A DNA stretch of 20,000 bases from an uncultured virus (IMG/VR IMGVR_UViG_3300046454_000431) (IMGVR_UViG_3300046454_000431); one strand, 5' to 3'; counted from the first letter of the stretch, positions 2,293 to 20,000 are shown. Translations and numbers: made by a program. The notes: generated by a model not told the origin, from the sequence alone.

Positions 2293-3065
2293 CGGGGATC
2301 AGCGAACCGCTCACCTATAACAGCTACGTCTCTGCCATCGCGACCCTTGCTGTCGTCCCGACGCAGGGAGACAGCGGTGGCGTGATGCATTTCACCGAGC
2401 CGAATCTCGATGGCGTCGTCCCACAGATGCTGAATTACGCGGAGCTTCGCATCCAGCGCGACCTTAATCACCTGGCGTCGCAGAAAATGCGCTCCTACGC
2501 GCTGGCGGATGGCTCCTGGGAATTGGACATCCCCTTCGATGATCTCGTCACCGTCCAAAACATCACTCTCGCGGGGGTGACCGACACCACTGTTTTCTCC
2601 GCATTGACGCCGGTGTCGAAAGAGTTTTGGCAAACCGTTTACATTGATCCCGACTATACCGCCGTCCCGAAATATTTCACGCCTGTCGGCGGCGAGTTAA
2701 ATCCGGCGGGCGCCACATATCACATTTACTCCATTATGCCGAAGCCAGATCAGCCGTATAAGGCTTATGTCACAGGCACCGCGCGCATGCCCTCGCTGTA
2801 CATGAAAAAGAACTCTGAGCCTAACAGCGGAACAACCTTCATTTCGAGCCAGATGCCTGATCTTTTGCTGATGGCGAGCATGGTGTTTTTGAGCGCGTAC
2901 CAGCGCAACTTTAGCTCGGCAGGCTCCGATCCGCAGATGCCGATCAATTACGAGACGCAATACCAGACCCTGCTGAAGGGCGCGATGGTGGAGGAAATGC
3001 GGCGCCGCTTCTTGATGGTGCCAGGGTCGAGCGATGCGCCGTCGCCGGCGAATATGAAGGGCTGA
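2289..3065 (+). CDS. Head-to-tail adaptor (T7 gp11 / P22 gp4-like position)
   Basis: 258 aa. N-terminal LTYNSYVSAIATL...MLNYAELRIQRDL, central P.YF...PKPDQPY and C-terminal PDLLLMASM...YETQYQTLL patterns are typical of podovirus adaptors. Lies directly upstream of the nozzle gene. Confidence 0.7.
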   Translation: MTGISEPLTYNSYVSAIATLAVVPTQGDSGGVMHFTEPNLDGVVPQMLNYAELRIQRDLNHLASQKMRSYALADGSWELDIPFDDLVTVQNITLAGVTDTTVFSALTPVSKEFWQTVYIDPDYTAVPKYFTPVGGELNPAGATYHIYSIMPKPDQPYKAYVTGTARMPSLYMKKNSEPNSGTTFISSQMPDLLLMASMVFLSAYQRNFSSAGSDPQMPINYETQYQTLLKGAMVEEMRRRFLMVPGSSDAPSPANMKG

Positions 3066-15209: not shown

Positions 15210-16235
15210 ATGACTGAATTTACACCAGGCAAAGGCCTTAACGTACCGGCTGCAGGGACGCCGAACTGGGACGTGCCGGTGAACACCGACTGGCGCTCCA
15301 TCGATCAGGCCATTGCGGGAGTGCAATACGTTAATGCCGCTGGCTTCACCGGCAACGTCAACCTGTCCAATGCATATCCAACTGGTTCATCCGATCCCGC
15401 CACTACGCTGTCCTGCTTGCCCTCCACGATTGTCATTTACGGAGCTATTGCAGGGGCGGTCAATCTGGTGTTTCCAGACGGCCTTGTGGGCCACTGGATC
15501 ATCAGAAACGCAACCGGCGGGAATTTTGCAGTAAACGTCGTCACGTCTACCGGTACATATAACTATATGTCTGTTCCGCAGGGTGTCTTATCTCACGTCC
15601 ATAGCGACGGCCACACTTTTTATTTTGTCGGCGCGAGCGGCACCACGTCGCAGCTTGCGATGATTGGTGAGATCAAAGCCTGGTCTGGCGGCTGGGTGCC
15701 GACGCAGTGGATGGCTTGCGATGGCCGCTGGCTCGACAGGTTTGCCAACGGAGGGCAGTACGGGCCGCTCTATAACGTTTTTGGCTTCGCCTATGGCGGC
15801 AACGGCTCCAATGCATTCGCCATTCCCGATTTGCGAGGGCGCGTGGTGGCGGGCGCAGACAACATGGGGACGCTAGGCAGCGCCAATCGCCTGAACGGGT
15901 GGGGGATGACGGCTGTCGGCGGCGTGGCGAATCTGGCCTTGACCACCGATCAGTTGCCGTCGCACACGCATTATGATTATGGCCACGGGCACAGCGTGGC
16001 CCAGAACCCGCATCACCACACTATCACCATTCCTGACAATAGCGTCGGGGGACAGCCAGGCGTGGGCTACAGCGGCCAAGGCTGGCCATGGGCTGGAAAA
16101 CCGACGACCGACGAGACTGTCCCCTTGGGGATCTATGCCGGCTACGCCAGCCTCACGAACACCGGCAACGGCAACGCCTTCTCGATCCTGCAGCCGACGC
16201 TCGTCCTGCAATACATCATTTACACGGGCGTCTAG
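15210..16235 (+). CDS. Tail fibre protein with phage tail-collar domain
   Basis: ATG 15210 follows GAGGA. Collar signature IGEIKAW.G...P..WMACDG...Y..LY...G..YGG.G...FAIPDLRGRVVAG, a His-rich tip (LPSHTH..GHGH..PHHH) and C-terminal ILQPTLVLQYII. Confidence 0.9.
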   Translation: MTEFTPGKGLNVPAAGTPNWDVPVNTDWRSIDQAIAGVQYVNAAGFTGNVNLSNAYPTGSSDPATTLSCLPSTIVIYGAIAGAVNLVFPDGLVGHWIIRNATGGNFAVNVVTSTGTYNYMSVPQGVLSHVHSDGHTFYFVGASGTTSQLAMIGEIKAWSGGWVPTQWMACDGRWLDRFANGGQYGPLYNVFGFAYGGNGSNAFAIPDLRGRVVAGADNMGTLGSANRLNGWGMTAVGGVANLALTTDQLPSHTHYDYGHGHSVAQNPHHHTITIPDNSVGGQPGVGYSGQGWPWAGKPTTDETVPLGIYAGYASLTNTGNGNAFSILQPTLVLQYIIYTGV

Positions 16236-16630
16236 GCGGCTCTCGTCTGGTAACAAGCGATCATGTGCTTGGGGCAGTAGATGGTCACGCCGGGTCTATC
16301 GACCGTCTCGCAGCAATAGGTGACGCCCGCCGGCGAGCGCGGATCTCCGAACGGATAACGGCAGGTGAAAGCCGTCAGGCCCATGATCGTCCGATCCTGG
16401 ACAGGCGGCGCAATGGGCGCGGCGATTGTCTTCATCTTGGGCGTCCTCGGCGGTCTGGGTTTACGAGGCGCCAGAACGCTCGCGGCCCGACTGACGTCGA
16501 ATCCGCGAGCGCGGAGCCTGGATATGACACCGATGATCGCGTTCTTGGTTTTACCCAATTTTTCGCCAGCCTCCGTTCCACTGAAGCCGGCTTTCCACAG
16601 GGCCAGGATCGCGACTTCGTCGCTGTTCAT
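16232..16630 (-). CDS. gcrA: GcrA-family cell-cycle transcriptional regulator homolog
   Basis: N-terminal HTH LW..G.S....G.KLG.TKNAIIG...RL, a basic Pro-rich linker, and C-terminal IMGL...TCRYPFGDP....YC......YCPKH. Start is 16630 or 16648. Confidence 0.88.
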   Translation of the reverse strand: MNSDEVAILALWKAGFSGTEAGEKLGKTKNAIIGVISRLRARGFDVSRAASVLAPRKPRPPRTPKMKTIAAPIAPPVQDRTIMGLTAFTCRYPFGDPRSPAGVTYCCETVDRPGVTIYCPKHMIACYQTRAA

Positions 16631-16631
16631 T

Positions 16632-16859
16632 TCAGTTCGTTTGGTCATCTGCCTTTTTCTCGTATCTCACGCCGCAGAACGGGCAGTATGTCGGAACGAT
16701 GAGCGGCATCTTGCTGCGCATGCTGGTGATGATTTTTTCGCTCGCGATCAGCGTGGGGATCACGATCAGATGACCATCGATAACACGAAAGGCGGTCGTC
16801 AGCCTGGCGTTGTTGTCGGCAATCATCTTGTTCATGTCGTCGGCGCAATTGCAGGTCAC
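16632..16859 (-). CDS. Small hypothetical protein with CxC and YCPFCG (putative zinc-binding)
   Basis: GTG at 16859 preceded by GGAG and overlapping the upstream stop (GTGA). Sequence runs TCNC...PTYCPFCG, 75 aa. Confidence 0.7.
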   Translation of the reverse strand: MTCNCADDMNKMIADNNARLTTAFRVIDGHLIVIPTLIASEKIITSMRSKMPLIVPTYCPFCGVRYEKKADDQTN

Positions 16860-17083: not shown

Positions 17084-17464
17084 TCACCGCTCATCTTGAT
17101 CTCCCAAATTGTCGATGTTGAATACGGCGTTGTCGATTTTCCTGTCGAGGATCGCCAGAATCTCCGCGTATTCCTGCTGGAGCGCGAGGCGCAGCGCCCG
17201 ATAGGCGTCCGCTTTGCTGGCGTACCAGGGACCGCCGGTGCCCTGGGCGTCGGTCCTGTCGGTCCTGCTGTAGCTGTGGGCGCCGGCCCTAAAGCAGCCT
17301 TGGTTGACTTTTCGGCTGTATGCGTCGAAGTTCCAGCCGGTCTGATTTAGATCGCTGGGGACCAGCCTGTGCAGGACGAAATCGCGAAAGCGCATGGCGC
17401 GCGCTTCGTCCAATTGTTTGACGATGAGGTCGAACGCCGCTTTTTCGGCCTTGGTCATGGCCAT
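17084..17464 (-). CDS. Hypothetical phage protein
   Basis: 126 aa, coupled to the MazG-like gene (TGATG), with codon usage typical of the locus. Confidence 0.7.
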   Translation of the reverse strand: MAMTKAEKAAFDLIVKQLDEARAMRFRDFVLHRLVPSDLNQTGWNFDAYSRKVNQGCFRAGAHSYSRTDRTDAQGTGGPWYASKADAYRALRLALQQEYAEILAILDRKIDNAVFNIDNLGDQDER

Positions 17465-17922
17465 CAGCGCAGCCTCGCTCTGAACCCCAGCTTTTTGCTG
17501 GTGGCGTTGAACTTATCGACGGTCGCCCGCTTCAAATCGATGCCGGCTTTGATGGCGATCAGCGAAACGTAGACTTCCACGTCAGCCAATTCTGTCGCCA
17601 GATCGGCAACGGTGGCGCGCGAGCCATCGAGGCCCAGGCGTTCGCGCTCCAGCTTTTTGATCACGTTGCAGGCTTCGCCCATTTCGCCGGCGGCGGCGTT
17701 GCCGTAATAGGACAGATCGAGCTTGTCGCTGTTCGTCCACTCAAGCTGGCGGGCGATGTTGGCCTCTTCCAGCGTGTCATAATAGATGACAGGCTGGGCC
17801 TTTCTGGGTATGGGCTGCACCTTTTCGAGCACCCCGGTAATCAAGTTGTGGGCGACTGTTTGATCCATGCAAGCTTTATGAGCAAGCAACACGCTCATGG
17901 CTTCGATTTCTTCAGGGGTCAT
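17464..17922 (-). CDS. MazG-like nucleotide pyrophosphohydrolase
   Basis: AGEMGEACNVIKK...ELADV...GIDL...DKFN is the all-alpha NTP-PPase ExxE...ExxD metal-binding pattern. GAGGA RBS. Has a ~50-aa N-terminal extension. Confidence 0.85.
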   Translation of the reverse strand: MTPEEIEAMSVLLAHKACMDQTVAHNLITGVLEKVQPIPRKAQPVIYYDTLEEANIARQLEWTNSDKLDLSYYGNAAAGEMGEACNVIKKLERERLGLDGSRATVADLATELADVEVYVSLIAIKAGIDLKRATVDKFNATSKKLGFRARLR

Positions 17923-17973: not shown

Positions 17974-18633
17974 TCAGACGGGTTGACGAAAAGCGACGAT
18001 GCGGCGGATCGACACCATGCCGTAGCCGACATTGTGCCGGTGGTTGCCCGACAGCAGCAGGATCGACGAGGGATAGACTTTGGCGACGATCCCGATGTGA
18101 TGGGGCAGGACGGCGACGGCGCCGACCCTGGGTGCGCTAGGCCGGCCATAGTGGGCGTAGGAGACGGCGGCGAGCGATCCCAGGCGGGAATAGCCGGCCT
18201 CTTTGAGCCACAGGCCCACGGAGGCCGCGCACCAGGGGCCATTGAAGCCGGTGAAATTGCCGCCGCCGACATAACGCTCCGCAACGTGCAGGAGGCGTGT
18301 GTCGCCGCCCAGGGACGCCGTGGGCGTGTAGAAACGAAAGCCGAACAGGCTGAAGCCCTGATCGGGTTCAGGGGCCACCGCCATCGCCGTGCGCGCATAG
18401 ACGCGGCGCTGATAGTGATGGTGGTGCGCAACAGGGCGCCAGCGATGATAGTAGCGGCGAGGTTCACGCCATCGAGGCTTCAGGCTTTCGAAGGATTTCT
18501 CCTGCGCCTCCATGCCAAAAATGCGCCGGATGTTGAAATTTTGACTGGACGTTTGCGGCGGCGGGTCCACACTGGCAAATGCCGGCGAGGAACACGCCAC
18601 GAGTAGAGCCGTGACGGCGAGCAGCTTTCGCAT
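17974..18633 (-). CDS. Exported CHAP/NlpC-P60-like cysteine peptidoglycan hydrolase (TIGR02594-like)
   Basis: Signal peptide MRKLLAVTALLVACSSPAFA (possible lipobox LVAC) and a His/Arg-rich linker. Catalytic-type motifs PWCAA, HIGIV and LLSGN. AAAGGA RBS. Confidence 0.8.
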   Translation of the reverse strand: MRKLLAVTALLVACSSPAFASVDPPPQTSSQNFNIRRIFGMEAQEKSFESLKPRWREPRRYYHRWRPVAHHHHYQRRVYARTAMAVAPEPDQGFSLFGFRFYTPTASLGGDTRLLHVAERYVGGGNFTGFNGPWCAASVGLWLKEAGYSRLGSLAAVSYAHYGRPSAPRVGAVAVLPHHIGIVAKVYPSSILLLSGNHRHNVGYGMVSIRRIVAFRQPV

Positions 18634-18653: not shown

Positions 18654-18688
18654 AAAAAGAGCGCGCCCTGCGCGAACAGGGCGCGCTC
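18654..18688 (-). terminator. Rho-independent terminator after the Gly-rich exported protein gene
   Basis: Perfect 12-bp stem GAGCGCGCCCTG/CAGGGCGCGCTC (18659-18670 / 18677-18688) with a 6-nt loop, followed on the minus strand by TTTTTAT. Confidence 0.85.
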
Positions 18689-18712: not shown

Positions 18713-19075
18713 TCAGTGACCGGCGACGCCGCCGCCGACCGCAATCACGCTCGATCCGCCGCTGGAGGTGGCGCCGGCAAGGCCGTTGCCCGAAGATACG
18801 GCGCCCGTGGACGAAACGGACGAAGCCGTGCCGGCTCCCCCGCCGCCAGCCGCAACCGGGCCGAAGAACGTGCCGGTAGCGACGCCGCCGCCACCCGCAA
18901 CGCCGGTCGCGCCAGCGGTGGTGCCGCCAATCGCAGCCGCGTGGCCGAGCGAACCGACGACGGTCGTCGAGTGGGAGTTGGTGATGACGGTGCCGCCACC
19001 CACGCCGAAGTCGAGAGCGAAGGCCGGGGCCGCAAGCATCGACAGGCCGGCGGCGAGAACAAAGATCTTCTTCAT
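18713..19075 (-). CDS. Exported Gly/Ala/Ser/Thr-rich low-complexity protein
   Basis: Clear Sec signal MKKIFVLAAGLSMLAAPAFA. The mature ~100 aa is almost uncharged. GAGGA RBS at 19082-19086 and its own terminator downstream. Confidence 0.8.
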   Translation of the reverse strand: MKKIFVLAAGLSMLAAPAFALDFGVGGGTVITNSHSTTVVGSLGHAAAIGGTTAGATGVAGGGGVATGTFFGPVAAGGGGAGTASSVSSTGAVSSGNGLAGATSSGGSSVIAVGGGVAGH

Positions 19076-19095
19076 GCTATTTCCTCACGTGTGGT

Positions 19096-19376
19096 GCCAG
19101 GGAAACCGCCCTGGCGCGGATTTCAAGACTACCGCCCGCGACCACGAAACCGCTTATGTGACAGGTCGCGGACGGCAGCTTCTTGCTTTCGTGGCTGGGT
19201 CCGTTTGGAGCAAACCCAGGACGCCCCGCTCTCCACGGGGGACGCAAGATCTCTGCATGACCGCCGAGCCGGTGGGGACGAACCCTTCACCTTCCCTCGG
19301 CGGTCAGCTTGCTTTCGTGGCTCGCTGATGAGCAAGGGCCACGCCCGCTCGGTTCGGCGCGCGGGGACGCAAGATC
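19096..19376 (-). ncRNA. Candidate tandem structured RNA: two copies of a three-way-junction motif plus three hairpins; family not recognised
   Basis: Identical blocks CTTGCTTTCGTGGCT (19182-19196, 19308-19322) and GGGGACGCAAGATC (19238-19251, 19363-19376) flank variable but base-paired interiors. Hairpins at 19258-19306, 19128-19179 (G-U pairs only on the minus strand) and 19096-19115. Confidence 0.6.
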
Positions 19377-19998
19377 AGTTGGAGGCCGTCTTGACGCAGA
19401 CGCCGGCGTCAGCAGACTGGCGGGCGCCCTTGGTGCCGCAGGCGGCGACGACGTACTGGTGGCCTTTCTTGTCGAAGTAGCTGGCCGAACGCTTCATGTC
19501 GAGCGTCACGGGCTGCGACTTTTCGCCGGGAACCTTGCCGTGATATTCGCCCTTGAAGACCGGATGGCCGTAAGGCTCGACCACAGCGACCGTCTGCACG
19601 GCATATCGACCGATCCGACAGCGGACGCCAGAGGCGACCAGGGCCGAAGCTACTTCGTCGTCCTGGCACATGACCTGGATCGCGGCGTCACGCTGCCCGA
19701 AAGCCCATAGAGTGCGAGCGTTGAGGCGCTTGTTGCAAGGCCCGTCCTGCCAGGGAAAGCCAAGCGCCCCACCGCCGCCGACAGCGGCGCCGCCCAGGGA
19801 GACGGAGCCATTGCAGCTTTCAATGCCGGCGGCGCTCATGCCGGGGGCGAACACCGACGGCGACTGGCCGGTGGTGGTCGAATTGAAGGTGTTGGTGTTG
19901 GCCGCGCCAGACTGGTTGGCGTTGACGGAGCGGACGCCGACGTTCTGGCTGCTGTTGATGCGGCTGTTGACGTTGGAGTTGGAGCGCGAGGCCGAATT
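19375..19998 (-). CDS. Hypothetical protein (5'-truncated): Asn/Ser-rich N-region plus Cys-containing domain, probably exported
   Basis: Frame stays open to the window edge: ...NSASRSNSNVNSRINSSQNVGVRSVNANQSGAANTNTFNSTTTGQSPSVFAPGMSAAGIESCNGSVSLGG...D.PCNKRLNARTL...G...AAIQVMCQD. The AP......C.GS.S.G...D..C....A..L...MCQ pattern resembles a recurrent phage hypothetical family. Confidence 0.75.
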   Translation of the reverse strand, partial: NSASRSNSNVNSRINSSQNVGVRSVNANQSGAANTNTFNSTTTGQSPSVFAPGMSAAGIESCNGSVSLGGAAVGGGGALGFPWQDGPCNKRLNARTLWAFGQRDAAIQVMCQDDEVASALVASGVRCRIGRYAVQTVAVVEPYGHPVFKGEYHGKVPGEKSQPVTLDMKRSASYFDKKGHQYVVAACGTKGARQSADAGVCVKTASN

Positions 19999-20000
19999 GG

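Follow-up and report, generated by a model that had tools for sequence, protein, structure and literature searches.

The window analysed here is a stretch of 20,000 nucleotides from an uncultured virus (IMGVR_UViG_3300046454_000431) and corresponds to C1:118174-138173 of a virus record with a length of 138,254 bases. The record is labelled 'complete, direct terminal repeat' and has an end repeat of 99 bp. Self-comparison revealed that it comprises two related genomes of about 69 kb arranged head to tail (1-69298 versus 69299-138254, 77-94% identity), which make up either a chimera assembled from two strains or a genuine heterodimer. Because the record joins two genomes, the second copy of the element described below (L002; 97% identity) is the same locus in the sister genome and not a dispersed repeat. 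When the whole record was searched with words of the element, exactly and with one mismatch, four units were found and the words occurred nowhere else.

The element lies between the two genes of a minus-strand cassette (18713-20000) with a terminator at its end. The upstream gene, whose 3' part occupies 19375..20000, encodes an Asn/Ser-rich protein that is 265 aa long in the twin copy (L002), with an N-terminus resembling a signal peptide. It ends in a TGA stop codon at 19377-19375. The protein matched phrog_20531, a PHROG family of unknown function, and had 22 relatives among 5.8 billion proteins, none of which carried a function name. A search of genome contigs with this protein returned one archaeal locus, which was spurious. 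The downstream gene (18713..19075, minus strand) encodes a 120-aa Gly-rich protein, also with a signal-peptide-like start, and is preceded by the SD sequence GAGGAA at 19086-19081. An intrinsic-terminator-like site (18659..18688, minus strand; a 13-bp stem followed by UUUUUAUG) closes the two-gene unit.

The same leftward cluster continues with a lipoprotein-like protein with a weak tail-lysozyme match (17974-18633), a MazG-like protein further downstream (17464-17922) and a GcrA-like regulator (16235-16648; Pfam PF07750, E 1.4e-12), all on the minus strand. The neighbours of the units had no Pfam match, and their PHROG matches were two families of unknown function, a tail lysozyme and a MazG-like protein. 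The two-gene cassette is very rare, and was also found in otherwise unrelated phages, at differing places relative to the MazG-like gene. Apart from the cassette and some tail genes, little is common to the phage carrying locus L034 (G005) and this genome; the cassette therefore moves between phages and behaves like a moron. All 24 public runs holding the stretch were soil or rhizosphere metagenomes, with no RNA runs listed among them.

Two minus-strand units with starts 125 nt apart occupy the spacer between the two genes, letter for letter as a preliminary description of this DNA had placed them. Unit A (19376-19308; fold 19373-19308) has the layout GAU CUUGC GUC (CCCGC..GCGGG)(CGUGGC..GCCACG) AAA GCAAG. 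In its minimum-energy fold, which is also supported by relatives, the closing helix P1 (CUUGC/GCAAG) pairs 19373-19369 with 19312-19308, the junction strands are GUC (19368-19366) and AAA (19315-19313), and hairpin P2 (19365-19344) abuts hairpin P3 (19343-19316). Unit B (19251-19182; fold 19248-19182) has the layout GAU CUUGC GUC (CCCCG..CGGGG)(CGU-C-CUGGGU..ACCCAG-CC-ACG) AAA GCAAG and was assigned in the same way, with P1 at 19248-19244 and 19186-19182, junction strands GUC (19243-19241) and AAA (19189-19187), P2 at 19240-19224 (loop UGGAGAG) and P3 at 19223-19190. The element was said to start at the upstream stop codon and to precede the gene of an exported protein. Consistent with this, the TGA at 19377-19375 overlaps the start of unit A (19376), and the product of the next ORF (start 19075) begins like a Sec signal peptide.

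The three-way junction was both the minimum-energy and the centroid fold of each isolated unit (-28.4 kcal/mol for unit A and -28.3 kcal/mol for unit B). Folding z-scores of the single units were modest (-2.25 for A and -1.94 for B), and the case beyond chance folding rests on relatives. The whole 326-nt spacer had a z-score of -4.5, and 0 of 100 shuffles were equally stable. When the whole spacer was folded, P1 was missing from the centroid and the P1 of unit B was swapped for other pairings in the minimum-energy fold. A P1 of only 5 bp that is lost in the whole-spacer ensemble suggests a regulated rather than a static fold. Past the TGA, the upstream frame stays open for about 80 codons through both units (19377-19129, minus strand). 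As L028 carries TAA at this position, read-through or selenocysteine at the stop was rejected; differences in spacer length that are not multiples of three also make read-through coding improbable. Kissing (loop-loop) contacts of P2 with P3 were seen in some units and missing in others, and were likewise rejected.

Each unit is followed by a long hairpin. Behind unit A, HP1 (19258..19306, minus strand) has an 11-bp stem (UGACCGCCGAG/CUCGGCGGUCA) and is kept in relatives with compensating changes. Behind unit B, HP2 (19128..19179, minus strand) has 16 bp including three G.U pairs and is extendable by CAAG/CUUG, which would take the 3' strand of unit B P1. One long GC-rich hairpin was found behind every unit of the close-relative clade, and behind the units of four further loci described below (L157, L162, L168, and L144). 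Since these hairpins hold the same places with different compensating sequences, the repeating block is the junction plus its hairpin, a module of about 125 nt. Modules were gained and lost as whole blocks among relatives.

A terminator scan of the minus strand of the window returned the site at 18688-18659 and a nested site within it, and nothing else. HP1 and HP2 were rejected as canonical terminators: they have no U-tract (HP1 is followed by UGCAGAG and HP2 by UCUUGAAAU), and only the hairpin of L162 qualified as an intrinsic terminator. A gene-proximal hairpin, HP3 (19096..19119, minus strand; hairpin 19115-19096; GCCAGGG-CGGUUU-CCCUGGC with CCGC before it), adjoins the SD. HP3 was kept with covariation in all relatives, including the unit-less L034 (stem variants: CCAGGG, CCGGGG, CCAAGG, and CCGGGA), and it may be this hairpin that actually serves as operator for the Gly-rich gene. 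The conserved CCGC before HP3 could pair with GCGG of the loop, as an alternative helix or a pseudoknot.

Relatives were gathered from the viral collection by a DNA pattern and by searches with both flanking proteins. The DNA-pattern search returned 21 loci, of which nine were real and 12 looked like chance. Units were present in ten of the 11 loci returned with the upstream protein. In L034, both genes were kept and no unit was present. Altogether, the number of modules at this site was zero (L034), one (L031/L032 and L033), or two (the window, L002/L024, L028, and L030), and the close-relative clade contained 11 distinct units. A covariance model (R1) trained on four A-type units and the L033 unit, with no B-type units, recovered six units left out of training with 31-42 bits (E 8e-7 to 6e-10); unit B was recovered at E 7.8e-7.

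In the alignment of the 11 clade units, 96.5% of 173 cells paired, against 31-44% when partners were slid by one to three columns. Both-sided changes occurred in six of 16 pairs, three in P2 and three in P3, and the observed covariation score was reached by 0 of 500 shuffles. The stems were also checked by eye, because the alignment had been fitted to the model's own structure. The inner helices thus vary in sequence while remaining paired, as had been noticed from units A and B, and covariation among homologs was present in P2 and P3 of the 11 clade units. The distal stems and loops were saturated with changes. The sequences CUUGC, GUC, CC..GG, CGU..ACG, and AAAG were invariant in 11 of 11 units, and GCAAG was present in ten (GUGAG in L033); two G.U pairs in L033 were the only variation in P1 within the clade. 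Conservation of the closing stem CUUGC/GCAAG and of the junction bases GUC and AAA, proposed from the window, therefore extended through the clade, apart from the single GCAAG exception.

Other conserved words proposed from the window did not extend beyond the closest sequences. GAGCGGG and UUGCUC were confined to this phage and its near twin, and the alternative helix suggested for GAGC and GCUC was not maintained elsewhere, where GGGC, UGGC, UUAGCUC, or GCGCUC stood in their place or the word was missing. Units A and B have only the junction core in common. Loop words were instead specific to each type: GCUCAUCAGC in the P3 loop of A-type units, and UGGAGAG (P2) and (G/A)AACGG (P3) in B-type units. 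This indicates that the tandem pair is older than the split of three sublineages and that each copy has been separately constrained.

The sense strand folded more stably than its complement in ten of ten spacers or modules, by a mean of 11 kcal/mol. G.U pairs were more numerous on the sense than on the antisense strand in seven of ten, equal in one, and fewer in two. The sense-strand stability and the G.U excess fit an RNA in the gene sense rather than a palindrome maintained at the DNA level. Together with the distribution of the units, they bear on the idea of a selfish or neutral mosaic DNA repeat of the RIME/BOX/REP kind, whose palindromes would be kept at the DNA level with no RNA function. 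Such a repeat would agree with the modular, mosaic structure, with blocks gained and lost whole, and with the different intergenic sites used in different phages. However, units were confined to one locus per phage record, there was no target-site duplication relative to the empty site in L034, and no copies were present in plasmids, GenBank phages, or metagenome contigs, so that, with the strand asymmetry, a DNA repeat of this type is highly improbable. A match to a dispersed host repeat had been named as one finding that would remove the novelty of the element; searches of phage records, GenBank phages, PLSDB plasmids, and metagenome contigs gave no dispersed copies. The blastn searches against GenBank phages and PLSDB plasmids returned nothing credible. 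Sixty pattern matches in metagenomes were rejected as chance-like, as the closing helix was absent in all of them and 0 of 49 distinct matches had at least two of the three junction pairs.

The element was also compared with known families. Rfam 15 gave no match to the window at the gathering score, nothing relevant in 19050-19450 at E<=10, and nothing at E<=0.1 in eight loci with units from relatives. Neither the window nor L002 contains a tRNA or tmRNA according to ARAGORN. The description of the motif as one of no recognisable family was thus borne out, even at permissive E-values. Full-text literature searches returned no description of the module. A published set of over ten thousand candidate structured RNAs from viruses (PMC10690425) may still list the motif; six record-number strings were absent from its text supplements. 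On the strength of sequence comparison and predicted folding, the element is a genuine three-way-junction RNA, modular in build and so far uncatalogued, that soil phages carry.

The module was next sought outside the clade with a looser pattern that fixed 20 junction letters only, which gave 78 loci with 50 distinct sequences. Each distinct match was scored by whether the three junction-closing pairs formed at the expected positions in an unconstrained minimum-energy fold. Among ten distinct clade units, all three pairs formed in eight, exactly two in none, exactly one in one, and none in one. Among 34 distinct non-clade viral matches, all three pairs formed in three (L157, L162, and L168), two in none, one in seven, and none in 24. 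Among 49 distinct metagenome matches the corresponding numbers were zero, zero, four, and 45. A fourth non-clade type (L144, L191, and L195) had a P3 too short for the script and folded alone as the same junction. In total, at least four other lineages of soil phages or mobile elements carry the module.

The closing helix of these lineages had other, still complementary sequences: GCCAAAGC/GCCUUGGC with one A.C mismatch in L157, GCCGUCGC/GC(U)GGCGGC in L162, UUUGC/GCGAA in L168, and CAUCCAAGC/GCUUGGGUG in L144. P1 therefore covaries across the family. The invariance of the junction letters outside the clade is by construction, because the search pattern fixed those letters. Scores of R1 did not part L157, L162, and L144 from chance pattern matches, since the pattern itself gives most of the score; these loci were judged instead by the junction geometry of the minimum-energy fold and by the following hairpin. 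The following hairpin had played no part in selecting the four lineages, which ranked 2, 7, 10, and 13 of 84 non-clade pattern matches for stability of the next 70 nt. When P1 was fixed as CUUGC/GCAAG and the junction triplets were left free, 68 distinct matches were obtained, none of which folded with three of three pairs except those with GUC/AAA.

The modules stand in front of different genes. In addition to the Gly-rich secreted protein, the downstream genes were a 62-aa ORF after a recombinase/HNH pair, a 78-aa ORF, a hydrophobic ORF, and a 93-aa ORF, and the modules ended 5-60 nt ahead of the SD of the next gene. The L157 module follows a serine-recombinase-like ORF and an HNH-like ORF (names read from translations). 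The L162 unit is flanked by two canonical terminators and precedes a small hydrophobic ORF; the hairpin behind the unit is a canonical terminator. The window phage and the record behind L168 (G008) have most of their genes in common. In G008, the module lies in another spacer, preceded by the MazG-like gene and a small ORF and followed by the 78-aa ORF and the GcrA-like gene. Querying with the ORF that follows the L168 unit returned no relative other than itself. Around MazG-like relatives (57 loci, 400,765 bases), the unit was found only in clade members and G008, and two marginal matches were rejected as coding sequence. No ORF of this genome was found to have relatives in all motif-bearing contigs, most of which are fragments. 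Both the window phage and G008 carry GcrA-like and MazG-like genes. GcrA is an alphaproteobacterial regulator, and from the GcrA-like genes in both phages the hosts are probably Alphaproteobacteria.

On the minus strand of L144, about 110 nt upstream of the full unit, there is a possible degenerate unit (GGCGUC-CCA..UGG-GUGGACGAAAGC) that has no P3. It also has a long hairpin behind it and is possibly a second, decayed module.

The placement of the L162 unit between two terminators, like a small gene, would suit a processed sRNA that acts in trans or as a decoy, such as a mimic titrating an sRNA of the host or one of its defence nucleases. The copy number of the module varies between close relatives, as in pseudo-ToxI expansions, and the conserved loop words UGGAGAG (B-type) and GCUCAUCAGC (A-type) could be read in the same way. 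A 23-nt stretch of unit B (19246-19224; UGCGUC followed by CCCCG UGGAGAG CGGGG) exactly matches two Methylobacterium replicons (L119 and L120, 1501-1523), where it lies antisense inside an Rfam ar45 sRNA match, beside a speF leader; its BLAST E-value was 0.2, and the match may be due to chance. The full covariance model found no unit on the two Methylobacterium replicons. Against action in trans, there is no room for a promoter between the modules, and the letters that are most conserved lie in helices, not in an exposed seed. The divergence of units A and B is also far too great for antitoxin-like repeats of type III systems, and no toxin gene is adjacent. A trans-acting RNA is, on this evidence, very unlikely. 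RNA repeats of a type III toxin-antitoxin system were rejected, as only the junction core is common to A and B and no endoribonuclease toxin was found among the neighbours.

The strict junction and the weak P1 direct attention to a switch, in which a ligand or protein would stabilise P1 and the balance between the folded junction and an alternative pairing would alter the hairpin, termination, or translation. The order of aptamer-like fold, hairpin, and SD resembles riboswitch architecture, tandem aptamers are known, and P1 is lost in the full-spacer ensemble. In several loci, the 3' strand of P1 or adjoining bases can pair with a word after the hairpin (window, CAAG/CUUG; L157, UUGG/CCAA; L168, GCGA/UUGC). 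This pairing is inconsistent, however: the CAAG used in L028 and L024 is a second one that lies outside P1, and no such pairing is present in L144 or L162. The hairpins are not canonical terminators except in L162, those of the window do not sequester its SD, the module is dispensable in L034, and the downstream genes are unrelated in function. A switch operated by a ligand or protein is therefore unlikely. The preliminary description had offered a riboswitch among its candidates, and this part of it lost ground, given the unrelated downstream genes, the absence of the module from L034, and the lack of a consistent mutually exclusive pairing. The module shares with riboswitches a conserved, covarying aptamer-like fold, and it differs in not being tied to genes of one coherent function; a metabolite riboswitch is unlikely.

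The position of the module before hairpins also recalls the put RNAs of phage HK022. Like putL and putR, it is about 70 nt long, has two adjacent hairpins, is located after the end of a gene and ahead of terminators, and requires no phage protein. The likeness is one of general layout: put RNAs are not known to have a closing helix, whereas the module has P1 and the GUC/AAA junction. In put-like processive antitermination, the nascent two-hairpin fold would bind host RNA polymerase and allow it to read through the following hairpin or terminator. The two abutting hairpins after a stop codon and before a terminator-like hairpin (a true terminator in L162), the presence of two diverged copies per phage, and the lack of a phage protein in common would all suit such a function. 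The copies are nevertheless tandem in one spacer and not in two operons, and most of the following hairpins have no U-tract. Antitermination of this kind has a slim chance of being correct.

The letters and shape of the junction further invite comparison with the type III hammerhead. Both are small Y-shaped three-helix junctions closed by a short helix, and both have GUC ahead of the first hairpin, GAAA ahead of the closing strand (in each case on the 5' side), a conserved core with variable stems, and tandem, phage intergenic occurrence. In the module, however, the CUGAUGA strand of the hammerhead is absent and P2 and P3 abut. The P1 of the module ends in C-G, with GUC and AAA unpaired beside it, and there is no A15.1-U16.1 register; read from the sequence, setting U opposite A leaves a G.A or G.G mismatch. 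The complement of the A-type P3 loop GCUCAUCAGC reads CUGAUGAG, which is present only in that form, as the reverse complement of the loop. Membership in the hammerhead family was rejected: the three helices are present, and the CUGAUGA strand, the register, and an Rfam score are all wanting.

If the element belonged to a new class of small self-cleaving ribozymes, or were an extreme derivative of the hammerhead, the junction would be its active site and it would cut the polycistronic mRNA between genes. The conserved core at the junction, the stems free to vary, and the placement of the GUC and GAAA letters would be expected of such a ribozyme. So would the tandem arrangement in variable copy number, always in the gene sense, between unrelated neighbours in phage intergenic regions, with no protein partner in common found. 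Bacterial hammerhead, twister, pistol, and hatchet ribozymes usually occur in such phage intergenic contexts. In all 11 clade units, however, 0 nt separate P2 from P3, at the place where CUGAUGA is required in a hammerhead. No Rfam ribozyme model matched the window spacer at E 10 or the eight loci at E 0.1, six unpaired conserved nucleotides are few for a catalytic core, and the prior for a new class is low. Self-cleavage is accordingly rated as unlikely. If true, a hammerhead-shaped element would be working without the CUGAUGA strand of the hammerhead. In a broader form, the junction GC|GUC|CC..GG|CGU..ACG|AAA|GC would be a new ribozyme core, or an RNA reprogramming host RNA polymerase or RNase, that serves as portable punctuation in phages of soil Alphaproteobacteria. 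We regard this as a long shot.

The reading that we favour, with a rough probability of 0.4, is that the module acts in cis as mRNA punctuation, with host machinery using it as a site of processing and as a barrier to decay. The Y-shaped fold of about 55-75 nt would be transcribed within an mRNA running from the 265-aa gene into the Gly-rich gene. The junction plus hairpin would mark a processing site in this mRNA, and the module structure would shield the new RNA ends from exonucleases. In some copies, the hairpin would double as a terminator, either leaky or full. The flanking cistrons would thereby become uncoupled in stability and expression, with host machinery rather than a phage protein acting on the module. 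From the fold, strand, modularity, and distribution, which the comparisons established, we infer the processing, the protection, and any effect on expression.

The context of the module is a general-purpose one, which fits punctuation: any gene can follow, the orientation is always the gene sense, blocks are gained and lost, and there is no phage protein in common. The lack of a shared phage protein points to host factors or to autonomous action. The module end, 5-60 nt before the SD, is where a protective 5' structure would sit after cleavage. Differential mRNA stability is set by intercistronic hairpins in the Rhodobacter puf operon, and the early mRNA of phage T7 is punctuated by RNase III sites. 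The module resembles T7 RNase III sites, puf hairpins, and REP stabilisers in being a stable sense-strand spacer structure of variable number that would involve host RNases. Those structures, however, are hairpins, plain or bubbled, and lack a three-way junction of conserved sequence.

Punctuation leaves some features of the module unaccounted for. Its approximately 20 invariant junction letters are more than a simple decay barrier or an RNase III duplex needs, and an invariant junction would be better explained by a catalytic core, a pocket for a ligand, or a site bound by a specific protein than by a barrier. The conserved type-specific loop words GCUCAUCAGC and UGGAGAG also count against it. 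Because a plain barrier does not explain a strict junction with a weak P1, the ribozyme, switch, and put-like readings stay alive beside mRNA punctuation. As a stabiliser only, the module would show soil phages tuning neighbouring genes. Should it turn out to be self-cleaving, or to direct an RNase or polymerase of the host, it would be a new natural RNA punctuation device and a compact part for synthetic operons.

Some spacers of the clade contain additional sequence. In the sister genome (L002), an additional insert of about 200 nt lies between HP2 and HP3 (L024, 3040-3240). The insert includes a weak tRNA-like stretch (tRNA-Sec model, E 0.45; T-arm GGUUCGAUCC), where ARAGORN calls nothing. 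In L033, an extra ORF of about 100 codons (2730-3040) lies between the 265-aa gene and the single unit, and its open frame continues through the unit to a TGA beyond the following hairpin. Spacer variants co-occurred in soil DNA runs.
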